A DNA stretch of 24,000 nucleotides from Coleofasciculaceae cyanobacterium (lineage in GTDB: Bacteria > Cyanobacteriota > Cyanobacteriia > Cyanobacteriales > Coleofasciculaceae): contig DATNPH010000003.1 in NCBI GenBank assembly GCA_036703315.1, positions 8,141-32,140 of the forward strand, read 5' to 3'. The position numbers and the translations under genes were made by a program. Below the pieces are notes generated by a model. The model worked only from the letters and a program-made list of their open reading frames with translations. It ran no database searches and had not been told where the DNA came from. This document shows positions 1,340 to 16,609 of this stretch, in pieces. How positions within the stretch are numbered: position 1 is the first letter of the stretch; every line of letters begins with the position of its first letter.

Positions 1340-2662
1340 TCAATCTTTCAGAGTGAATTCTGATTCGTCACTTCCCAGCGCCTGCCCTGCTAACCAAGCT
1401 GTTGTCCAGGCACTCTGAAAGTTAAACCCACCCGTAACGCCATCAATATCCAAGATTTCCCCAGCAAAGTAAAGACCTGGAACTAAGCGACTCTCCATTG
1501 TCTTGAAATCCACTTCTTTTAAACTAACGCCGCCGCAGGTAACAAATTCTTCCTTGAACACACCCTTCCCTTTAATTAAGTAGCGTCCCTGAGTAAGTTC
1601 TTGGACTAACTGATTTAAGGCTTTTTTCGATACTTCCGCCCAGCGTTCTTCTGCACCAATGCCAACCGTGTTGACTAGACTCATCCAAAGACGCTTGGGT
1701 ACAGCAACTGGGCAACTGGTCGTGATTTGGCGTCGGGGTAGTTGGGACTTGACCGCCGATAGCAGTTGGCGTAGATTATCCTGGCTTTGCTGAGGAAGCC
1801 AATTGATGAGTAAGGGCGTGTGGTAGTGCTGCTCGTGCAGGAATCTTGCTCCCCAGGCAGAAAGCTTGAGGACGGCAGGACCACTAACTCCCCAGTGGGT
1901 GATTAGTAATGATCCAGTTTGCTCCTTGAGTGTAGGCGGTGCCTCCGGTAATCGCAGGCGGACTTCATTGACACTCACTCCTGCTAAATCTTGCAAACGG
2001 GAGTCTGGGATATCAAAGGTAAATAGGGAAGGAACAGCCGGTTCGACGGTGTGACCCAAGTCTTTTACCCAGTGGTAGCCTTGAGGGTTGCTGCCACTGG
2101 ACAGGAGGAGGCGATCGCATTTCAAAATCTCACCCGTCTTCAACTCAATCTCAAACCCCCCTTTGGATTCCCCCCCTTGGTAAGGGGGGGCTAGGGGAGG
2201 GCGTCGCTTGACGGACTTTACTGCCGTACCTGTGCGAAGTCTTACCCCAGCGTCTTCAGCTGCCTTAATCAGGCAATCTACAATCGTTTCAGAATTATCC
2301 GTAACCGGAAACATCCGCCCATCTGCCTCTGTTTTCAGCTGAACGCCGTGAGACTCAAACCAGGCAACTGTATCCTTGGGTTGAAAGCGACTGAAAGCAC
2401 CCCGTAAGGCTTTACCCCCTCTGGGGTAGTATTGCACCAATAACGCAGGGTCAAAGCAGGCATGAGTAACGTTGCAGCGTCCACCACCAGAAATACGAAC
2501 TTTAGATAAGGGTTGACGCCCAGCTTCTAATAAAGTGACTCGTGTATGGGGATGAGCAGCAGCACAAGTAATTGCTCCGAAAAATCCGGCAGCACCCCCA
2601 CCAATCACTACAACATTTAAAGGCTTGAAAACCAAGAAAGCACCACAGAAAAAGAGTAACAA
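1340..2662 (-). CDS. HI0933-family (BaiN-like) NAD(P)/FAD-dependent oxidoreductase
   Basis: It has an N-terminal dinucleotide fold VVVIGGGAAGFFGAI, the family motif RISGGGRCNVTHA, and a C-terminal FAGEILDIDGVTGGFNFQSAW. The track start is a TTG at 2660-2662, 4 nt after the rubredoxin stop. The exact start is uncertain. Confidence 0.85.
   Translation of the reverse strand: MLLFFCGAFLVFKPLNVVVIGGGAAGFFGAITCAAAHPHTRVTLLEAGRQPLSKVRISGGGRCNVTHACFDPALLVQYYPRGGKALRGAFSRFQPKDTVAWFESHGVQLKTEADGRMFPVTDNSETIVDCLIKAAEDAGVRLRTGTAVKSVKRRPPLAPPYQGGESKGGFEIELKTGEILKCDRLLLSSGSNPQGYHWVKDLGHTVEPAVPSLFTFDIPDSRLQDLAGVSVNEVRLRLPEAPPTLKEQTGSLLITHWGVSGPAVLKLSAWGARFLHEQHYHTPLLINWLPQQSQDNLRQLLSAVKSQLPRRQITTSCPVAVPKRLWMSLVNTVGIGAEERWAEVSKKALNQLVQELTQGRYLIKGKGVFKEEFVTCGGVSLKEVDFKTMESRLVPGLYFAGEILDIDGVTGGFNFQSAWTTAWLAGQALGSDESEFTLKD
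2156..2200. repeat. C-run/G-run hairpin repeat embedded in frame in the flavoprotein CDS (encodes PPLAPPYQGGESKGG)
   Basis: CCCCCCTT-GGT-AAGGGGGG (2171-2189) is a perfect 8-bp stem. It has the same C6-TT..AA-G6 architecture as the hairpins at 16-34 and 210-228. Confidence 0.7.
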
Positions 2663-2665
2663 TCT

Positions 2666-2824
2666 CTATTCTGGTTCAAAATCTGATTTCGTCGCACCAC
2701 ACACAGGGCACACCCAATCGTCAGGAATTTCTTCAAAGGGAGTTCCTGGTTGTATTCCTGAATCTGGGTCGCCTTCCTCTGGGTCATAGACGTAGCCGCA
2801 AAGCGTACAAACGTATTTCTGCAT
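2666..2824 (-). CDS. Rubredoxin (52 aa), absent from the supplied ORF track because it is under 60 aa
   Basis: Hand translation of the minus strand gives [52 protein letters not shown] then a stop. It carries both iron-binding knuckles (CxxCG and CPxCG) and the conserved Y/W/F core. Confidence 0.95.
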
Positions 2825-2882
2825 TTTTGTTCTCTAAATGCCTTTTTTACAATATTGCTTTACTCAAGAAATATAGCGGTTC

Positions 2883-5852
2883 TTAGTTGCTCAAGGGCAA
2901 TATTACAGTAAATGTCGTGCCTTTCCCAGCTTCACTTTCAACGCTAATCTCTCCCTTGTGTAAGTCCAGGCACTGTTTAACAATGGCTAGACCCAATCCT
3001 GTTCCCTGAATCGTGCCGACATTAGTAGCGCGATGGAAGGAGTTAAATAAGCGAGGTTGGTCTTCAGGGGGGATACCGATTCCTTGGTCTTGAATTTGGA
3101 AGATTGCACTGTCATCAACGTAGGTGAGGTTAAACTCGACAGTGCTGTCGCTAGGAGAATATTTGATAGCATTCGAGAGTAAATTAGTAAGAATTTGCCG
3201 CAGCAATTTTTCATCCATGCTGGTTGGGATGCTTTGGCGCTGACAAGTCAAAACAATTGTGTTCGGGTTTTCGGTAGTTAGTTGCAACTCTTCTACCAAA
3301 TTGCGACAAAATTCCACTAAATCTAATGGCGCTGGGTTGAATTCCAATTTGCCAGCTTCTGCTTTCCCAAGGATTAGGATGTCATCCAACATCTGAGTCA
3401 TGCGATCAACAGCTGTTTGAATGCGATCAAAATGAGTTTGTTGTTTTTCCTGTGACCAGCGATCGCGGTAACGTTCCAATAATTCGGTGGACGATTGGAT
3501 TGTCGTTAGTGGAGTGCGGAACTCATGGGAAGTCATGGAAACAAATTGAGACTTAAGTTCACCCAGTTCCCTTTCTTTTTGGAGCGTTTTGTAAATTTCT
3601 TCCTCCACCTGCTTACGGGAGGTAATGTCTTCGGCAAGGCCAGCAACACGGTAGACTTGTCCTTGCGTATTCTGTACTGGAAAGCCGCGATCGCGTATCC
3701 AACGCATTGACCCGTCAGGTCGCACAATCCGATACTCCTTGTCGTACTCTGCTTGAACCTGTTTCTCAATGGCAGCTTCGATGCGATCGCGATCCTCTGG
3801 ATGAATAGCGTCCAGCCAAGAGCGTGGCTGTTCATACAAACTTTCGCGGGTACGACCCCACATCTGCTCATACGCTGGACTGACGTAGATAATCTCAGAG
3901 GAGTCAAAAGAACTCATCCAGAAAACTTTATTGATATTTTCTGCTAACTGGCGGAAGCGCTCTTCGCTCTCCCGCAAAGCATCTTCTGCTTGTTTGCGCA
4001 GTGTAACGTCACGCCATGCCGCTGTAAAACCGTCGTCTAGTTTGGTAACGCGGATATCGAAGGCTCTGGTTAGTCGCTCTTGACCAAAAACATCCTCATA
4101 GAACAGGTCTTCTTTTATGAGTGAATTATCCGTTTCTACGACTTGGCAGTATTCGTCAAACAGCCCTGTTCCCCGATGGTTGGGGAGCAATTCACAAAGG
4201 CTTTTGCCAATCATCTCCTCCTTGGTCATCCGGTTATTTTCACAAGCGGCGGCATTGACATACTCGACTTTGAAGTCGATGATTTTGCCGGAGTGATCGC
4301 GTACTGCCGAGTAAATGCCAAAACAATCCAGCATATTTTCAACTGAAGTTCGGAAACGTTGTTCGCTCAATCGAATCTCTACTTCCGCCTGTTTAGAGGT
4401 AGTAATGTCACGGGCGATCGCTAGTACGGTTTCTGTAGAACCATCTGCCCCAAATTCCGGTACATGGCGGCTCTGGTAATACTTTAGTCCGTTGGGTGTT
4501 AATAAATTGAACTCAATTTGTTGTTCGCTGTCGGTTTGAAAAACTGTTTGTAGGGATTCGCCCCAGAAAGATGCCAATTCACTCGGCATCCCTAGCTCAT
4601 GATGCGTTTTGCCAATAAATTCTCTAGCTGGTAAACCAGTAGCGAGTTCAATGGCAGGGTTGACATAGACATGACGCAGTTCCCGGTCAAAGCGTGTAAT
4701 GATATCGGGGGCATTTTCAACCAGTGCTTTGAATTCTTGTTCGCGTCGGTGCAGCGTTGCCTCGGCTCTGGCGCGTAGGGCAACCTCAACAAGGAGTATC
4801 TCATTGAGCTGTTCTAGCTCAGCCGTGCGCTCTCTGACTCGATTTTCTAGCTGTTCATTCAATCGTTGCAGGACTTCTTCTGCCTGCTTGCGATCGCTGA
4901 TGTCCAGAGTCACTCCATCCACAACTACATCACCATTGTCCATCTGAAAATATCGGGCACTATCATGAAACCATTTCACCTGACCGGATGGGGTTATCAC
5001 CCGAAACTCATGCTCGACAGGCTCAAGCGTCTGATATTTCTGTGTTAAGACTTGATCGAACTGCCCTCGGTCGTCTGGATGGATTATTGTGAGCAATCGT
5101 TCTGGCTGGGCCATCACTTCATTTGGCTCTAAGCCAGTCAGTTCCCGAAAACCGACATTGATATAGGGTAAGGACATTGTGCCGTCAGGATGCAGCACTG
5201 CCCGATAGACAGTGCCTGGAATATTAGTGGCAATGCCAGACAAACGCTGTTCATTCTCGCGTAGTGCCATCTCGGCTTGTTTGTCAGCCGTGATGTTCAA
5301 TGTGCTGCCAACGACACGCACCGCCTTCCCCTTTGTATTTCTGACAATCAGTCCTTTATCCAAAACATACAGGTACTGATTGTTTTTGTGACGAACCTGA
5401 TATTCAATGGCAAAATCACTTCGGTTTGATAGGGCCTCTGAAACTTCGTTGCGGACGCGCTGCCGGTCATCCGGATGGATGCGCTCTGTCCACCATTCAG
5501 GGGTACATTCAGCTTCTTCAGGACGATAGCCTAAAACCTCAACCAGACCTTGTGTCCTGTCAACCGTATGTGTGTCGATATTCCAGTCGAAAATAATACA
5601 ACCCACAGCACTGGTAGCAAGCTGAAAATACGCGCTTGCTTGCCGCAGCTCTAATTCCATCTGCTGTAGTTTCTCAATGGTATTGCTCAGTTCCTGGAAG
5701 GCTTGCGCTATTATTTCCTGCGGTTGTTGCTCTAAAGGTAATTGATCAGCACTCTGTTGCAGTTGAGCCAGGCGTTGCTGCATATACTGTATCTGTTCTT
5801 GCCACTCATTGAAGTTCAGACTATTCATTCTTTTACTCTCTTCCCACTGCAA
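2883..5852 (-). CDS. Multi-PAS sensor histidine kinase (coiled-coil N-terminus, about five PAS/PAC modules, HisKA, HATPase_c)
   Basis: Each of the five modules ends in D(I/V)T..K(Q)AE, and three of them carry a PAS-like IHPDDR/IHPEDR signature. The H-box is SHEFRTPLTTI. The N box is LLSNAIKYS, and the G boxes are DQGIGIP and GTGLGLAIV. No transmembrane segment is evident, so it is probably cytoplasmic. Confidence 0.9.
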   Translation of the reverse strand: MQWEESKRMNSLNFNEWQEQIQYMQQRLAQLQQSADQLPLEQQPQEIIAQAFQELSNTIEKLQQMELELRQASAYFQLATSAVGCIIFDWNIDTHTVDRTQGLVEVLGYRPEEAECTPEWWTERIHPDDRQRVRNEVSEALSNRSDFAIEYQVRHKNNQYLYVLDKGLIVRNTKGKAVRVVGSTLNITADKQAEMALRENEQRLSGIATNIPGTVYRAVLHPDGTMSLPYINVGFRELTGLEPNEVMAQPERLLTIIHPDDRGQFDQVLTQKYQTLEPVEHEFRVITPSGQVKWFHDSARYFQMDNGDVVVDGVTLDISDRKQAEEVLQRLNEQLENRVRERTAELEQLNEILLVEVALRARAEATLHRREQEFKALVENAPDIITRFDRELRHVYVNPAIELATGLPAREFIGKTHHELGMPSELASFWGESLQTVFQTDSEQQIEFNLLTPNGLKYYQSRHVPEFGADGSTETVLAIARDITTSKQAEVEIRLSEQRFRTSVENMLDCFGIYSAVRDHSGKIIDFKVEYVNAAACENNRMTKEEMIGKSLCELLPNHRGTGLFDEYCQVVETDNSLIKEDLFYEDVFGQERLTRAFDIRVTKLDDGFTAAWRDVTLRKQAEDALRESEERFRQLAENINKVFWMSSFDSSEIIYVSPAYEQMWGRTRESLYEQPRSWLDAIHPEDRDRIEAAIEKQVQAEYDKEYRIVRPDGSMRWIRDRGFPVQNTQGQVYRVAGLAEDITSRKQVEEEIYKTLQKERELGELKSQFVSMTSHEFRTPLTTIQSSTELLERYRDRWSQEKQQTHFDRIQTAVDRMTQMLDDILILGKAEAGKLEFNPAPLDLVEFCRNLVEELQLTTENPNTIVLTCQRQSIPTSMDEKLLRQILTNLLSNAIKYSPSDSTVEFNLTYVDDSAIFQIQDQGIGIPPEDQPRLFNSFHRATNVGTIQGTGLGLAIVKQCLDLHKGEISVESEAGKGTTFTVILPLSN

Positions 5853-7454: not shown

Positions 7455-7535
7455 GGTCAGTGCAAGCGAGTTGTCACCCCTGCCGACATTAAGTTGGCTT
7501 TTTTAAAGTAACACAATGCTGTGCTGGGTTTTGAA

Positions 7536-7570
7536 TCAAAAAAACAGGCTGCGCTGCGGCGCAACCTGTT
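7536..7570 (-). terminator. Rho-independent terminator of clpB
   Basis: The minus strand reads AACAGGTTGCGC-CGCA-GCGCAGCCTGTT, a 12-bp stem with one mismatch, followed directly by TTTTTTT. It begins 26 nt after the clpB stop. Confidence 0.8.
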
Positions 7571-7595
7571 GCAGAGCGAGCATTTAGCGTTTAAA

Positions 7596-10223
<2,628 letters not shown>

Positions 10224-10802: not shown

Positions 10803-11744
10803 ATGAACTTCTTGGGATTAAACCTAGATCTGTCAGTAAGCCTGCGATGGACTGATGTCATGAGTGCGTGGAGTGCTTTGGTTGCAGCGACAGATGCTCA
10901 GGCGGTTAACGCATCTTCTGAGGTTAGTCCACTGCAAAGCCTTCTCGAAGCGAGCGTGTTAGGTCTCGTGCAGGGAATCACTGAGTTCTTGCCGATCAGC
11001 AGTACAGCGCATCTGCTGGTCTTCACTAAAGTCCTAGGCTGGGAAGCCTTGGGACAAAAGTATTTTGTAGACGCCATTCAATTCGGCAGCGTCATCGCCG
11101 TGGTGTGGTATTTCTGGTCAGACATTCGCCAGATTTTGACTGGAGGATGGGTAGCCTTGCGCCAGCGAGCTTGGGAGCGGGACGAGTGGAAAGTCTTAGT
11201 AGGAATCGCGGTTGGAACGGTTCCCTCATTGGTTGGCGGTTTTCTGCTTAAAGATAAGCTACCAGAGAGTATGGCAATCATTGCCACTTTGTCAATCGTC
11301 ATGGCATTACTGCTGGGACTGGCAGAGCAGATTGGCAGTCGTAAGCGTGGCTTTGATTCCCTCCAGATTAAGGACGGTATCCTGGTTGGGCTAGGTCAAA
11401 TGTTTGCCCTATTTCCAGGTGTGTCGCGGTCTGGCTCAACGTTAACAACATCATTATTCTTGGGACTGGAGCGGCAAACAGCAGCAAAGTTTTCTTTTTT
11501 GCTGGGTCTCCCCACATTGACTATTGCCACTTTGTACCAAGCGAGAAAAGCGTTTGGCAACACCGACATGCTGCTCCCCCTGCTGGTAGGGATTGTCTCA
11601 ACCTTCATCTTCTCTTACTTATCAATTGCTTGGCTGCTGCGCTATTTGCAGCGTCAGAACACTTGGATCTTCGTCTGGTATCGGCTGGCGTTCGGGGTGA
11701 CGATTCTAGCAGCGATCGCCACAGGCTGGCTGAGGAACAATTGA
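10803..11744 (+). CDS. uppP: Undecaprenyl-diphosphate phosphatase (UppP/BacA)
   Basis: It has the signature GITEFLPISSTAHL and a later PGVSRSGSTL motif, and is polytopic. The true start may be the ATG at 10860 rather than 10803. Confidence 0.9.
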   Translation: MNFLGLNLDLSVSLRWTDVMSAWSALVAATDAQAVNASSEVSPLQSLLEASVLGLVQGITEFLPISSTAHLLVFTKVLGWEALGQKYFVDAIQFGSVIAVVWYFWSDIRQILTGGWVALRQRAWERDEWKVLVGIAVGTVPSLVGGFLLKDKLPESMAIIATLSIVMALLLGLAEQIGSRKRGFDSLQIKDGILVGLGQMFALFPGVSRSGSTLTTSLFLGLERQTAAKFSFLLGLPTLTIATLYQARKAFGNTDMLLPLLVGIVSTFIFSYLSIAWLLRYLQRQNTWIFVWYRLAFGVTILAAIATGWLRNN

Positions 11745-11844
11745 GAAGAAGTTTAGCTATTAATTCAAGTTACTAGTACTACAGCCGCTGAAATCCAAAT
11801 AATCTGCTCTACAAATTATGCAGATTGTATTGGAGAGTAAGGGC

Positions 11845-12831
11845 CTAAAAATTCTCTCCATCAAAATGAATCAGATGATCTGGAGCCTCGGCAATCCAGA
11901 CTTCCGTTTCCCAAGCAATATCTGGAGCAAACTGACGGAAAGTATTACGGTCAAGAAAGGCCGTGACAAAAATAATATCAGCCCTACATTGATCAGTTAG
12001 CTTTTTTAGTTCCAAAAGACGTACAGGAGAAATTGGACCTGAACTATGAACAGCCTCTATGAGGTAGAGCCAATTTCTCTGTTCTGAGTAAGCTATTATA
12101 TCCGGCAATTCACCATAAGACAGCTCAAAAAATCGAAGTGCCTCAAGTCGCTCTTTTTCCAAGTGAAGGAATTTGTTAGCGGTATCACCTACATTCAGCA
12201 CCTCTGCACCATAGCCATAGCGAGGGAGAAATTCCTCGATAACAGCTTTTTGCAATTCATTGTGCTTGCCAGGGCTTAACTCAGAAGTTTTACCAGAAGG
12301 AAAATTAACAGGGATTAAATTCAAGTCTCGCTTACCTGAAAGCTGCTCTTCTAGCGTTACTTTGCTTGCTAAGAACTCTTCAACATCAGCTTTCCAGCTA
12401 CTTGATCCGAAAGCCCTAATCAAAGCAGCATAGTCTGGACTTAATGCAAAAGCTCTTGTCCCATCATTGCGAGCTGCATTAGGATTTGCCGAACTTGCAA
12501 TAATGATTCCTGCTAGGACTATTAATTTTAAATCTTTTCTGCGTATATCATCATAAGAGCTTTCAGATATTTTTTCATTAAAATGGCTGTTCCAGTATCT
12601 AATAATATCTCTAGTTCTAAGAGCATGAGAAGTACCAACCTTTGCCCAATCAGTTTTCGTTTTGACATTGGCTACAGCTAAGAAAGCCATAGCTACCCTT
12701 TCCATTCGCCGTTTACTCATCCCTTCAACAGGTATACCAAACTTAGAAAGAATATATAAAGCTTCATTAATAAGCCTTTGCAGTTGCTTTGGCTTATCGG
12801 ACTCGGTAATATACTGGGGTAGCTCAGGCAT
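11845..12831 (-). CDS. Type II restriction endonuclease, BsuBI/PstI-family-like (328 aa)
   Basis: It lies 10 nt downstream of a C5 methyltransferase on the same strand. The C-terminal block LPDIIAYSEQRNWLYLIEAVHSSGPISP.R..EL......C.A..IFVTAF.DR.TFR.F..DIAWETEVWIAE.PDHLIHF matches my memory of the BsuBI/PstI catalytic domain. The size matches PstI and BsuBI (about 320 aa). The assignment rests on memory, not a search. Confidence 0.65.
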   Translation of the reverse strand: MPELPQYITESDKPKQLQRLINEALYILSKFGIPVEGMSKRRMERVAMAFLAVANVKTKTDWAKVGTSHALRTRDIIRYWNSHFNEKISESSYDDIRRKDLKLIVLAGIIIASSANPNAARNDGTRAFALSPDYAALIRAFGSSSWKADVEEFLASKVTLEEQLSGKRDLNLIPVNFPSGKTSELSPGKHNELQKAVIEEFLPRYGYGAEVLNVGDTANKFLHLEKERLEALRFFELSYGELPDIIAYSEQRNWLYLIEAVHSSGPISPVRLLELKKLTDQCRADIIFVTAFLDRNTFRQFAPDIAWETEVWIAEAPDHLIHFDGENF

Positions 12832-12840
12832 TGATATTAC

Positions 12841-13854
12841 TTAAAAAGGTAATGATAGCTGCAACGGTAAGCTGTTGCTTACTATCTCACTAGCTGATAA
12901 ACGTTTAGTTGATTGCAAATAGTTCCGGACAACTCCAGCTAAATGAAATGCAAATAGTGGTGAAACTGCATTACCCACTTGATTTAAGCAACTTGTTTCT
13001 GTTCCTACGAATTCAAACCAATCTGGAAAACTTTGCAGCCGTGCTGCTTCTCTCAAAACCAGACGCCGCCGCCGTCCATCAGGAAGTTTAATCCGGTGCA
13101 TATCGCCAGTGGCACCCGCCAGGTTCCTACAGGTTAAAGTTCGAGCGGGTTTATCTAGATGAAGATCGCGAGGACGTTTGCACAAAGAAGCTTTTTCATA
13201 CTTGGCTACATACTTATCCATACTAGGTGTCAGAAATTTTGATTCAGGAGGAGCTTGAAAAGCTAGCTCTCCTAATGCTTCACCTACACTAATTTTTCTC
13301 TCTAGTAAATTTGGAAAACTAAAGTGTCCTTTGTGACCCACGACAATAATACGCTCACGATTTTGAGGAACACCAAAGTCAACAGCATTTAATAACTTAA
13401 CCTCGATGACATAACCCAATGCCTGAAGCGCTTGAGTAATTTCATCTAAATACCACTTGTTTCGATAAAGCAGACCGCGAACATTCTCAAAAAACCAAAT
13501 TTCAGGACGAAGTCTCTCTACAGCACTGATGAAAATTGGGAAACCATCCCGTGAATCTCTTAAACCGTTTTGCTTCCCACCTACACTAAAAGGCTGACAG
13601 GGTGGACCACCAATCAGTACAGGTGCAGCAGGTAACTCTGTTTCTGTAGTCAACACTAGCTGAGTACACTTACCTTTTAAGTTTTTTCTATAAGTGGCAC
13701 AGGAATCAGCATCCATTTCAAAGCCATGCGTCTCAAACCCCTGTGCCTCAAACCCCAGTGATAAACCACCGCATCCGACAAAAAGATCTACTACCAGTGG
13801 ACTGCGAGATGGCGCAGGTTTAAGGACTTGGTTGATTTTGTCAACGTAGTTCAT
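12841..13854 (-). CDS. DNA (cytosine-5)-methyltransferase (337 aa)
   Basis: The canonical motifs occur in order: I DLFVGCGGLSLGF, IV GGPPCQPFS, VI FENVRGL, VIII QNRERIIVV, X GNAVSPL. Confidence 0.95.
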   Translation of the reverse strand: MNYVDKINQVLKPAPSRSPLVVDLFVGCGGLSLGFEAQGFETHGFEMDADSCATYRKNLKGKCTQLVLTTETELPAAPVLIGGPPCQPFSVGGKQNGLRDSRDGFPIFISAVERLRPEIWFFENVRGLLYRNKWYLDEITQALQALGYVIEVKLLNAVDFGVPQNRERIIVVGHKGHFSFPNLLERKISVGEALGELAFQAPPESKFLTPSMDKYVAKYEKASLCKRPRDLHLDKPARTLTCRNLAGATGDMHRIKLPDGRRRRLVLREAARLQSFPDWFEFVGTETSCLNQVGNAVSPLFAFHLAGVVRNYLQSTKRLSASEIVSNSLPLQLSLPF

Positions 13855-14020
13855 GTTTAGCCCTAGGGCGGTCGATACTCCTGTTCATGATAAAGCTCTA
13901 CCCCAAGCAGATGTCTTATTGGTTTGTACTTAGTAGCCCCTACTAGGTGTTATCCTAGTGTTGCCTGTGTCACTCTGAGAGCTAACCTCAGAGTGTTTTC
14001 TTAAGATATTAAGGTAGCTT

Positions 14021-14227
14021 ATGAATAGACCCATCACTAATAAAGATGACTTGGAGATACTGATAGATGAGCTAGGACTCAAAACAGTCCTAGCCACAAT
14101 CGCTACTATCTGCCAAGAAAAAGCCGACAAAGCCAAGGTGACCAACGGTTACTACTCCGACCCATGCAGGAATTTCATGCAGGCAGGAGCCAGCATTAGG
14201 GCAGTACTTAGGCGAATTGAGTGCTGA
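14021..14227 (+). CDS. Hypothetical small protein (68 aa)
   Basis: This ORF is divergent from the methyltransferase, with an AAGG 9 nt upstream of its ATG. I recognise no motif, and coding status is uncertain. Confidence 0.4.
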   Translation: MNRPITNKDDLEILIDELGLKTVLATIATICQEKADKAKVTNGYYSDPCRNFMQAGASIRAVLRRIEC

Positions 14228-14341
14228 TATTTGAAGACATCGACGGGACTAAGTAACCCCTACAAAGTCCTGAAACAAAGACTCTGAGCAGGATAAAGCC
14301 TACTCAGGGTATTCTTATGGGGTGTCTAAGTCCTAGTTCAG

Positions 14342-14518
14342 ATGCCTATTGATCGCGAGAAGAATAAGCAACTCAAGGTAACTATACCTAATGACCTCCA
14401 CAGAAAGCTCAAGATCATATCCGAGAGAATAGGTATTCCTATGGCTCAGATGCTCCTACAGTCAGCTGTAGAGAAGTATAGAGAGGAGCTGAAGGAACTG
14501 GACAAAGAAGAAGAATAG
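14342..14518 (+). CDS. Ribbon-helix-helix (CopG/Arc/MetJ-like) DNA-binding protein (58 aa), not in the ORF track
   Basis: Hand translation gives MPIDREKNKQLKVTIPNDLHRKLKIISERIGIPMAQMLLQSAVEKYREELKELDKEEE then a stop. It shows the beta-strand (LKVTIP), helix, G-x-(S/P), helix layout typical of RHH repressors and antitoxins. Confidence 0.65.
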   Translation: MPIDREKNKQLKVTIPNDLHRKLKIISERIGIPMAQMLLQSAVEKYREELKELDKEEE

Positions 14519-14629
14519 GCGTGATTTGGCTCGTATAACCTTTATTGGCTGTAGGAGTATTGTTATATCAGAATAGGGCTTTCAGCTTTTACTTCGTAAA
14601 TCCTCTTATGCCATGTTCTAGATTCTGTT

Positions 14630-15751
14630 ATGGCTAAATATCAATTTTCTCCAATACAAAGAATGGCTATTTGGAAAGCACATAAAGAAAAATGTGCTTA
14701 TTGTGGTGAACTTATACCTTTTAATGATTTAGAGATTGACCACATCTTACCTGAAAGTCTTCTAGACAATCCTGAAAAATTAGAGAAAATCAAACTTGAA
14801 TATGGGTTGGGTTCAGAGTTTGATATTAACAATTACTCTAATTGGCTTCCGAGTTGCAGTAGTTGTAATAATCGTAAGAGAAATAGACCTTTTTCAGAAA
14901 GCTCCACTCGTTTTTATAGAGAAATGGTGGCTAGACCAAAGTATGAAGAAATAAAAAGGATTGAGCAAAATCTCGAAACAAAAATGAAAAAAGAAGGTTT
15001 TTTAACAAAAAGTCAGGCAATTCCGCTTATTGAAGAATATATTAAAGACTTTGTAGTGAATAACCTGATTATTTCACCAGCTACAAAAAGGCGCGATCAA
15101 TGGATTAATGAATACCTATCAAAAGCAGTTCAAACAATTGCCGAAAAAGCCACTCCTTCTGTAGTTGAAAATTTGTCCAATAATGAATTCTTTCTTACAG
15201 TTGTTATACAAGCAACTTCAATAGCACTTCGTAACCATCAAAAAGAAAAACTTAAAGCTTTAAGAAATGTAATTGTTAATTCAATACTTTCAACTTCAGT
15301 CGATGATGATATAAAGCTACTGTTCCTTGACCTAGTTGATGAGTTAAAAATTTCGCAATTGTGTTTATTGTATATGCTTGACGAACCGAGTAATTATAGA
15401 GATAAAGAAGCTATTTCAAAAAATCTAGAAGGTAATAAATACTTATATAGTCAATTCCTGAAACAATTGATAAACAAAGGACTGATATCTTTTGAATCTT
15501 TTTCTAAAGAGATTGAAGAAGCTGTAGGACAATTAGAAAATAACTATAATGCATCTAAACATGGGCGGTATGATTTATTTTCAGTACAATACTTTTCCAA
15601 GGAGAAAACGAGAGACAGCATGAAAGTAATAGAAGAAACAGAAAAAAATGTAGATTTAGCAGTAGTGCTTATAAAAGAGAATAAAAGTTGCACAACAGAG
15701 TTTGGCAGTCTATTTATTCAATTCATTAAATCTCCCCTTGGAGACAGCTAG
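14630..15751 (+). CDS. HNH nuclease domain protein with an uncharacterised helical C-terminal domain of about 270 aa (373 aa)
   Basis: The N-terminal HNH/zinc motif is C-AY-C-G ... LEIDHILPES ... NYSNWLPSCSSCNNRK (CxxC ... DH ... N ... CxxC-N-x-K). The remainder is K/E/N-rich, predicted helical, with no motif I can assign. It is the most AT-rich gene in the window. Confidence 0.8.
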   Translation: MAKYQFSPIQRMAIWKAHKEKCAYCGELIPFNDLEIDHILPESLLDNPEKLEKIKLEYGLGSEFDINNYSNWLPSCSSCNNRKRNRPFSESSTRFYREMVARPKYEEIKRIEQNLETKMKKEGFLTKSQAIPLIEEYIKDFVVNNLIISPATKRRDQWINEYLSKAVQTIAEKATPSVVENLSNNEFFLTVVIQATSIALRNHQKEKLKALRNVIVNSILSTSVDDDIKLLFLDLVDELKISQLCLLYMLDEPSNYRDKEAISKNLEGNKYLYSQFLKQLINKGLISFESFSKEIEEAVGQLENNYNASKHGRYDLFSVQYFSKEKTRDSMKVIEETEKNVDLAVVLIKENKSCTTEFGSLFIQFIKSPLGDS

Positions 15752-15789
15752 AAATACCAAGCCGTAGAGGAAATCATGATATTCAGCGG

Positions 15790-15831
15790 TTCTCCTGCTT
15801 CATAACGCGCAAGAAGTTCTCTAGCATTCAT
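15790..15831 (-). pseudogene. Truncated N-terminus of a pentapeptide-repeat protein gene (14 codons)
   Basis: The minus strand reads MNARELLARYEAGE. This matches the stereotyped cyanobacterial pentapeptide-repeat N-terminus (M..xELLxRYxAGERDFSG...). It then diverges (PLNIMISSTAWYF, stop) exactly where the AT-rich block begins. Confidence 0.5.
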
Positions 15832-16045
15832 ATTCCTGTATTGGTCAGTTTTGGTAAATCAGACTAATCCCAAACTAACACCCTAATGCAAGGTTGGGAT
15901 TTATGGTCTAAGCTCACTTCCGTTGCGCGTTAGCGATGCTTGCTTGCCCCAAGAACCGCTCTAATCAACCAGAGGTTTCTGACAAGGAAGGAGCGATCGC
16001 ACCTGTACCCCATGAGAAAATTAGATTAACAACCGCCAAACAGCC

Positions 16046-16609
16046 ATGATGCCTGCATCGGTTAAACCCCTCACCCTTGAAGAATTTCTCAAGCTTCCTT
16101 ATATCGAGGAATCTCCTGCATGGGAGTACATTAATGGGGATGCGATGCAAAAGCCGATGCCAAAAACTAGGCACTCTATCTTACAAAAGCGGCTACTCGC
16201 TGTCATCGATAGTCACACGGAGGACTATACGGCACTTCCTGAACTTCGTTGTACATTTGGGGGGCGTTCTGTTGTGCCTGATGTTGCAGTGGTGGCATGG
16301 AACCGAATTCCGTTGGATGAGGAGGGAGAGCCAGAAGACAATTTTGTCCAACCCCCAGATTGGACAATTGAGATTCTCTCACCCGAACAGAATGCTAACC
16401 GGGTTATTGACAACATCCTGCATTGTCTGCGACATGGCTGTCAGTTAGGGTGCCTCATCGATCCGGACGATCGCTCTATCCTTACATTTAGACCCAAGCA
16501 AGAACCTGAAGTATATAGAGGAAACGATCGCTTGCAACTTCTTGAAGGAATCGAGTTAGAGTTAACGGCAGATCAAGTTTTTGGGTGGTTGAAGATTGGT
16601 AGAAGTTGA
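16046..16609 (+). CDS. Uma2-family (DUF820) putative endonuclease
   Basis: It has the typical pattern LTLEEFLKLP......EYINGDAMQKPMP...HS..Q..L...I........ELRC.F....VVPDVAV........PPDWTIEILSP, the PD-(D/E)xK-like core of the cyanobacterial Uma2 family. Confidence 0.85.
   Translation: MMPASVKPLTLEEFLKLPYIEESPAWEYINGDAMQKPMPKTRHSILQKRLLAVIDSHTEDYTALPELRCTFGGRSVVPDVAVVAWNRIPLDEEGEPEDNFVQPPDWTIEILSPEQNANRVIDNILHCLRHGCQLGCLIDPDDRSILTFRPKQEPEVYRGNDRLQLLEGIELELTADQVFGWLKIGRS

Follow-up and report, generated by a model that had tools for sequence, protein, structure and literature searches.

A candidate defence nuclease with a hypervariable helical domain in a chromosomal hot spot of Coleofasciculaceae

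What does an HNH nuclease with a long helical extension do in a cyanobacterial chromosome, and is the small ribbon-helix-helix (RHH) gene in front of it its partner? The question arises from a 24,000-nucleotide (nt) stretch of the metagenome-assembled genome of a Coleofasciculaceae cyanobacterium (GenBank assembly GCA_036703315.1, contig DATNPH010000003.1, positions 8,141 to 32,140 of the forward strand; hereafter the window). An earlier note on this stretch, made without database searches, had placed an open reading frame (ORF) for a 58-residue RHH protein 111 nt upstream of an ORF of 373 residues and had proposed that the two form a defence or toxin-antitoxin-like module. Both ORFs were found where the note had put them, with the 111-nt gap between them. 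The RHH ORF had been described as missing from the ORF track; it exists, with the qualification that it is already annotated publicly as HEY9631811.1. The proteins of this locus are HEY9631808-813 at NCBI, and the matching JGI contig is Ga0334951_000006; other loci (L) and proteins (P) are cited below by number. We favour the view, at a probability of about one half, that the 373-residue protein is a solitary nuclease with a presumed defence function and a variable recognition domain. The RHH gene belongs to a portable unit of its own.

Two modules of the 373-residue protein

An exhaustive HMMER search, which returned 3218 relatives, showed that the 373-residue protein joins two modules, each of which also exists on its own: an N-terminal HNH module (residues 1 to ~130) and a helical part (residues ~130-373), referred to here as C-dom. 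The N-terminal HNH motif, described as clean in the earlier note, was confirmed: Pfam HNH (PF01844) matched residues 22-44 with 30.1 bits (cut-off 21.4), HNH_4 scored 22.3 (cut-off 22), and a PHROG HNH family matched the module at E=2e-14. The signature consists of C22xxC25, D37-H38, N67/N71 and C76xxC79-N80, and residues D37, H38, N67, N71, N80, C22, C76 and C79 are identical in 20 of 20 alleles. P0006, P0008 and P0016 have Arg instead of C25 (CAYRDE/CAYRGE; alignment A5) and retain the other zinc and catalytic residues; these alleles may have three-Cys zinc sites or may be partly disabled. The AlphaFold2 model shows the beta-beta-alpha fold (strands 35-38 and 72-75, helix 77-83) with a predicted local distance difference test score (pLDDT) of ~90. 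In Foldseek, viral and phage HNH proteins were the best fold matches of the whole protein (probability 1.0; E>0.01), and the HNH domains of Cas9 and Cap5 matched the module with probabilities of 0.9-0.97 (E>0.1).

The HNH module is reused with other C-termini, including Trypsin_2 (in P0066) and long TPR arrays, and in the 528-residue protein P0040 it occurs twice in tandem with a similar linker after each copy. In a metagenome-assembled genome of Paceibacterota (L019, 7093-8630), a Trypsin_2 protease gene lies 90 nt 5' of a stand-alone C-dom gene. HNH, Trypsin_2 and C-dom occur in several pairwise combinations.

C-dom was predicted by AlphaFold2 to be all-helical (mean pLDDT 85) and to be joined to the HNH domain by a 43-residue helix (131-173, pLDDT >90). 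Its N-terminal half is conserved and carries the motifs SPATKRRDxW and RNHQxEKLxALRNxxxNS, within which the H, K, N, N and S columns are invariant across the whole family; these residues would line one helical face. In the C-terminal half, the order of helices and strands, together with the motifs YxxxLxDLxxKGLI ... TTxLGxxFIxFI, suggests a putative winged-helix-like fold with a helical hairpin insertion; none of the searches run supported that fold. The statement of the earlier note that the C-terminal ~270 residues are unassignable held in every collection searched. Residues 101-373, which are rich in L, K, E, S, I and N, had no significant match in Pfam, NCBIfam or PADLOC. With PHROG added, the full protein and its stand-alone relatives returned only HNH families or PHROGs without a function, and Foldseek searches of PDB and of the viral models in BFVD, with both the full model and the C-dom model, found nothing for C-dom (E>0.5, TM-score <0.3). 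A sequence-profile search of PDB gave chance matches only, the top one being the FAS death domain at E=0.009.

Stand-alone C-dom proteins have 215-290 residues, with a short Gly-rich N-terminal segment in place of the nuclease. The window C-dom is 43% identical to the stand-alone protein P0029 over 246 residues (E=2e-52), and profile matches to the family ranged from E=1e-88 to 1e-10, with PxxKRxxxW, RNHQxEKLxALxNxxxNS and a C-terminal GxxFxxFI found in the region of residues ~130-373. Two PHROGs with no assigned function (26838 and 11520) match members of the family, PHROG 26838 matching the window protein at E=1e-5 and its relatives with values as low as 8e-15. PF28206, listed in the precomputed Pfam column for the stand-alone proteins P0195 and P0198, may be a recent Pfam model of the family.

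A pattern scan of GTDB genomes, built on a 7-sequence alignment (A4), located 27 C-dom loci that are scattered patchily over bacterial and archaeal phyla: Cyanobacteriota, Acidobacteriota, Proteobacteria, Bacillota, Chloroflexota, Planctomycetota, Patescibacteria and Bacteroidota, and, among the archaea, methanogens, Methanoperedens and one Asgard archaeon. The domain is also encoded on plasmids of Planktothrix, Bacillus cereus (pBc10987), Hymenobacter and Vibrio and in 11 IMG/VR viral contigs; in a Pseudomonas phage, a lone C-dom gene lies in opposite orientation between the early genes and a recombinase gene. Relatives of C-dom in 27 other genomes stand alone, with no partner conserved among them, and a census of 96 ORFs near 23 stand-alone C-dom genes revealed no recurrent neighbour: an Eco57I-type methyltransferase (MTase) was encountered twice and a BsuBI/PstI restriction endonuclease (REase) once, the remainder being housekeeping genes. 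The gene of one close stand-alone relative (43% identity; L007) directly follows a DUF1156/DUF499(HEPN) operon. One stand-alone C-dom gene is preceded by an Xre-type helix-turn-helix gene.

The earlier note had also seen a vague likeness between this region and Abi-alpha (Abiα, EF2833; DUF4393/PF14337), a prophage-encoded single-gene abortive-infection protein of 272 residues (PMC6356687). Stand-alone C-dom proteins do resemble it in length and helical content, in being solitary, in their presence on prophages and plasmids and in their occurrence in both Gram-positive and Gram-negative taxa. However, hidden Markov model (HMM) searches did not reproduce the similarity: PF14337 matched neither the window protein nor 16 stand-alone relatives (E<=0.1-1). 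It is also absent from the precomputed Pfam columns of 84 C-dom relatives, and PDB entry 3H35, reported to be similar to Abiα, is missing from the Foldseek match lists. We therefore treat the likeness as a lead only, one for which the HMM searches do not support homology.

Hypervariable alleles in a chromosomal hot spot

Wherever a full-length HNH/C-dom fusion could be assigned to a contig, it occupies one and the same chromosomal slot of related Coleofasciculaceae, which extends from clpB/uppP to a Uma2 gene. The cargo of this slot differs between strains. Found in it are the restriction-modification (R-M) pair that the window carries, the MTase by itself in the opposite position, PD-(D/E)xK proteins and a HEPN/DUF4145-like protein. 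In L048 (3885-5430) it includes a pair of genes of a cyclic-oligonucleotide-based anti-phage signalling system (CBASS), encoding a CD-NTase (E=3e-126) and an effector of the two-transmembrane (2TM)/Cap15 type (E=1e-86), and in L046 (9999-12014) a 671-residue OLD/AriA/PtuA-like ATPase. Because R-M, CBASS, OLD-type ATPase and PD-DExK genes all occur in it, we regard the slot as a defence hot spot, in agreement with the defence-gene context proposed in the earlier note. A few kb separate the HNH gene from the CBASS pair and from the OLD/AriA-like ATPase gene.

In the window, the cargo lies in an AT-rich block beside a type II R-M system, as had been claimed. The GC content of the HNH gene is 0.314, compared with 0.474 outside the island, and the cyanobacterial repeat HIP1 (GCGATCGC) is missing from 11712 to 15993. 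This gap of 4281 nt is the longest in the window, with a Poisson P of ~0.004 at the HIP1 rate outside the island.

Between strains, the HNH/C-dom protein is only 51-61% identical at the amino acid level, whereas the RHH protein, the MTase, the REase and the Uma2 protein are 88-100% identical. The divergence is distributed unevenly along the protein: the mean pairwise identity of alleles is 71% for the HNH module, 80% for the middle region and 43% for residues 223-373, with a minimum of 14% in the last segment. At least two allele classes and mosaic patterns can be distinguished in this segment, in which the window allele is 40-46% identical to its own class. DNA homology with L001 breaks off at window position 15345 and with L002 at 15283, in both cases inside the HNH gene. 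Judged from this pattern, residues 223-373 are likely to be the specificity determinant. The gene also varies in its presence: it is fragmented in L052, deleted down to Uma2 in L058, and replaced 3' of the RHH gene by a TnpB element in L054 or by a PD-DExK gene in L051.

DUF4393 genes vary allelically through programmed inversions (PMC9881135). The window differs in this respect, having no inverted silent cassettes: a tblastn search with the other alleles and an inverted-repeat search found neither silent C-terminal cassettes nor invertible repeats in it. The diversity of the HNH/C-dom gene is therefore of the population level and not that of a shufflon.

Two of the sister loci show further peculiarities. 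In L051 (1662-4327), a gene for a 206-residue PD-DExK protein (PADLOC cas-associated PD_DExK, E=8e-48) begins 50 nt after an identical RHH gene; next come genes for a 220-residue PD-(D/E)xK-like protein and for a 318-residue protein that weakly resembles the motif-bearing conserved region of C-dom (30% over 69 residues, E=4e-5). In L004, clpB (476+396 residues; 1832-4477) and the C5 MTase gene (192+151 residues; 7517-8520) are each split into two ORFs, reflecting either frameshift assembly errors or pseudogenisation.

The reading that we favour, a solitary defence nuclease, draws on what the analysis showed: the domains that make up the protein, its intact catalytic residues, its modular build, its hypervariability, the presence of its gene in some strains and absence from others, and its setting in the island. 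The HNH/C-dom gene would be low-GC cargo of the Coleofasciculaceae hot spot directed against mobile elements, and its zinc-containing N-terminal HNH nuclease would be the effector. The conserved half of C-dom probably couples to this effector or controls it, and the hypervariable half probably recognises the trigger or target, which might be foreign DNA or a component of a phage; on recognition, the HNH domain would cut DNA. The RHH gene upstream, as an independent portable unit, would at most set transcription into the cargo and would not be a dedicated antitoxin.

Several observations weigh against a defence role. Selfish behaviour of the nuclease or relaxed selection could also account for the hypervariability. 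The searches detected no relative of C-dom with a known function, and for this reason the sensor or recognition role given to C-dom is purely inferential. Moreover, stand-alone C-dom genes lie mostly amid housekeeping genes, and an R-M gene occurs within three genes in only 2 of 23 loci (L026 and L034), with the DUF1156/DUF499 operon of L007 in addition. These counts do not establish that the wider C-dom family is enriched in defence islands. Were the gene to have no immune role, it would be an ordinary hypothetical HNH protein.

A bolder and more doubtful proposal is that C-dom represents a new, widespread class of single-gene immunity, resembling abortive infection or restriction and spread across bacteria, archaea, plasmids and prophages. 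In it, specificity would come from an exchangeable C-terminal cassette, and the conserved N-terminal half would govern the effector, either a fused one (HNH) or an intrinsic one, namely the short N-terminal peptide of the stand-alone forms. If this were true, the cyanobacterial HNH fusion would reveal the logic of the whole family. Should the recognition role of C-dom hold, the locus would offer a handle on an unnamed family with thousands of members, with DNA cleavage by the HNH fusion as a read-out. The natural series of alleles between near-identical strains is ready-made material for specificity swaps. Candidate defence genes are common; the extreme allelic diversity between near-identical flanks, together with the breadth of C-dom, gives this one a usefulness above that of most. 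Few defence systems have been characterised in the mat-forming Coleofasciculaceae, and the locus adds a documented defence hot spot for them, running from clpB/uppP to Uma2.

In agreement with the earlier note, the protein fits no named system. The PADLOC model of the Septu component PtuB matches the HNH region only (E ~5e-6). Septu and the CBASS effector Cap5 resemble the window protein in that a portable HNH effector is joined to varied non-catalytic domains. However, the partners that define these systems are missing: no PtuA-type ATPase gene lies beside the window HNH gene, and the window has neither SAVED nor a CD-NTase partner. The non-catalytic part of the window protein belongs to an unassigned helical family.

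An unlikely though close variant of the solitary-nuclease reading is that the protein is a modification-dependent (type IV-like) or a sequence-specific restriction enzyme, whose variable C-terminal part binds DNA that the HNH domain then cuts, no phage protein being sensed. A nuclease joined to a putative DNA-binding helical domain, encoded by a solitary gene beside R-M in a defence hot spot, would suit such an enzyme of the McrA or GmrSD kind, and the allele diversity resembles the swapping of specificity domains. Some alleles are named McrA automatically by JGI and have faint GmrSD_C matches, and a GmrSD_N gene lies downstream of another copy of the RHH unit. Unlike in those enzymes, the HNH module of the window protein is N-terminal, and Pfam, NCBIfam and PADLOC found neither DUF262 (GmrSD_N) nor SRA, McrB-N or any other known reader of modified bases in it. 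An active-looking C5 MTase adjoins the gene in most strains, constraining any activity that depends on 5-methylcytosine. Finally, stand-alone C-dom proteins have neither a nuclease domain nor a conserved nuclease neighbour, so C-dom appears to do more than target a fused nuclease.

We consider it distinctly improbable that the gene is a free-standing homing or selfish HNH endonuclease, which would spread by cutting empty alleles of the locus in the manner of I-HmuI. The order of the parts (N-terminal HNH, helical linker, putative DNA-binding C-terminus), the fold matches to phage HNH proteins, the low GC content of the gene and its presence/absence polymorphism at a fixed site would all suit such an element. 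However, the gene lies in a chromosomal defence hot spot, outside any intron, intein or phage genome, and the slot carries many unrelated defence cargos. Most members of the C-terminal family have no nuclease, and the extreme diversity of the putative DNA-binding part would be unexpected if a single homing site were recognised.

The RHH gene and its portable unit

The RHH protein only just passes the Pfam cut-off for RHH_3 (21.7 bits versus 21.6) and matches the PHROG "Arc-like repressor" at E=2.2e-8. A search for its homologs gave only close relatives (>=75% identity). The protein is 98-100% identical across loci, and its gene has a GC content of 0.42, compared with 0.31 for the HNH gene. Its steadiest companion is the gene of a 68-residue protein, 84-88% identical across loci, which accompanies it in other genomic contexts and has no family match in Pfam, NCBIfam, PADLOC or PHROG. 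Together they form a 590-nt unit (13928-14512) in which a palindromic leader precedes the 68-residue ORF and a diverged repeat of that leader precedes the RHH ORF. At ~80% DNA identity the unit is found elsewhere next to mutL, behind an integrase gene and an AAA_25 gene, and upstream of a GmrSD_N gene (L062-L066), and in each other context homology begins at 13928 and stops at the RHH stop codon. The RHH gene occurs without the HNH gene in L051, L054, L058 and L062-L067. Since this 590-nt stretch recurs without the HNH gene, the RHH gene belongs to a portable unit of its own that stands before variable cargo. The locus thereby shows a small portable unit ahead of varying nuclease cargo. The unit itself might act as a very small module of two genes for regulation or addiction, or might mark the edge of a cargo slot.

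The leader contains the palindromes CTTAGTAG..CTACTAGG and CACTCTGAG..CTCAGAGTG, two perfect 9-bp palindromes, folds far better than shuffled sequences (z=-3.9; RNA/DNA fold) and has a terminator-like scan match at 13971-13995. Palindromes 5' of both the RHH gene and the 68-residue ORF, together with the RHH signature, recall the Arc/CopG repressors, and the leader palindromes are plausible candidate operator sites. In local alignment, 13920-14020 and 14240-14341 are diverged direct repeats (CTWAGTARCCCCTAC...ACTCTGAG...), and the ~38 nt before the RHH start have one variable base across all loci, even where the sequence further upstream differs. The 68-residue ORF is absent from L002, L003, L050 and L056. 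In L002 and L003 the deletion junction falls between the two leader copies, and the loss looks like a deletion by recombination between the repeats. The 111-nt spacer between the RHH and HNH genes keeps its sequence in all loci where the HNH gene comes next and gives way to other sequence in those where it does not; the spacer folds unremarkably (z=-1.3) and matches no Rfam family.

RHH proteins are common antitoxins, and the locus could be read as a type II toxin-antitoxin pair with the HNH protein as the toxin and the RHH protein as antitoxin and autorepressor. An RHH gene does lie upstream, on the same strand, in every locus with an HNH/C-dom fusion; it outlives the loss of the HNH gene, the reverse never having been seen, and one member of its cluster is named a HicB-family antitoxin in UniRef. 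This constant association, however, represents a single evolutionary event, because all such loci are one syntenic site in one cyanobacterial family, and the two-gene module proposed in the earlier note was not borne out. At least five further contexts contain the RHH gene and the 68-residue ORF but no HNH gene, RHH also stands ahead of other cargo such as PD-DExK and GmrSD_N genes, and relatives of both C-dom and the HNH module occur elsewhere without an RHH partner. A binding pair would be expected to co-vary, whereas here a nearly invariant RHH protein faces an HNH protein with which it neither co-varies nor co-travels; the 111-nt gap and the difference in GC content point in the same direction. 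Since the RHH gene occurs independently, does not co-vary with the HNH protein and differs from its gene in composition, we give the toxin-antitoxin interpretation very little credence. The RHH protein is probably not dedicated to the HNH protein and may well repress transcription into the cargo.

Layout of the locus

The features of the locus are collected in Table 1. To the left of the RHH and HNH genes, the products of the R-M operon match Pfam DNA_methylase (E=1e-56) and BsuBI_PstI_RE (E=2e-60) and the PADLOC models MTase_II and REase_II. The product of the Uma2 gene at the right flank, 88-95% identical across loci, also matches the PADLOC candidate PDC-S03 (E=4e-10).

Table 1. Features of the RHH and HNH/C-dom locus (window coordinates)
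Feature	Position	Strand	Basis and remarks
58-residue Arc-like RHH protein	14342-14518	+	ORF; HEY9631811.1 ("hypothetical protein" in NCBI)
373-residue HNH/C-dom protein	14630-15751	+	ORF; HEY9631812.1; low-GC cargo, hypervariable between strains
HNH module, residues 1-100	14630-14929	+	Pfam HNH/HNH_5/HNH_4; PHROG; Foldseek
Helical linker and conserved N-terminal C-dom subdomain, residues 101-222	14930-15295	+	Family motifs; allele identity; AlphaFold2 helix
Hypervariable C-terminal C-dom subdomain, residues 223-373	15296-15748	+	Allele divergence
Conserved 68-residue ORF	14021-14227	+	HEY9631810.1; usually accompanies the RHH gene on its upstream side
Left edge of the portable unit (68-residue ORF and RHH gene), candidate promoter/operator	13928-13997		Two palindromes
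Second copy of the upstream element	14247-14341		Includes palindrome 14284-14307
RHH-HNH spacer, 111 nt	14519-14629	+	Multi-locus alignment
Type II R-M operon	11845-13854	-	C5 cytosine MTase 12841-13854 and BsuBI/PstI-family REase 11845-12831
Acquired low-GC island without HIP1 (R-M, 68-residue ORF and RHH, HNH/C-dom)	11713-15992		HIP1 positions and GC
Uma2-family endonuclease, conserved right flank of the hot spot	16046-16609	+	Pfam Uma2 E=8e-32

The same C5 MTase gene adjoins the HNH gene divergently in the window, L001 and L050 and convergently in L004-L006 and L045-L048, and a small DNA-binding gene 5' of a nuclease gene resembles the controller (C)-REase order of C-R operons. That the HNH protein is the REase or a nicking/repair partner cognate to this MTase, with the RHH protein as its controller, is nevertheless hardly credible: the window MTase has its own BsuBI/PstI-family REase in the operon, L002 and L003 have an intact HNH gene and no MTase within 6 kb, L051 has the MTase but no HNH gene, and both C-terminal allele classes, which share 14-20% identity, stand beside MTases of 88-92% identity, so the specificity of the nuclease does not track the MTase.

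The partners of PstI and BsuBI are N6-adenine MTases. In L034 a REase of this family adjoins an Eco57I-type (N6) MTase, and in the window the REase shares an operon with a C5 cytosine MTase, a pairing that may mark an unusual R-M combination.

Rfam gave no genuine match in 13800-16100, and in a sigma-70 promoter scan the sites were rarer than expected by chance, with none in the intergenic regions. About 115 nt past the HNH stop codon, an 11-bp inverted repeat (AATCCCAAACT/AGGTTGGGATT, 15866-15901) with a 14-nt loop is followed by TTTAT and may be the terminator of the HNH gene. This hairpin is flanked on both sides by the arms of a perfect 10-bp inverted repeat (15803-15812 and 15923-15932). 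Further 3' of the HNH gene lies a 49-nt segment that contains HIP1 (15953-16001). In L001 its copy (5223-5271, 82% identity) is found between the MTase gene and the 68-residue ORF, and the segment may be a recurrent junction between cargo modules.

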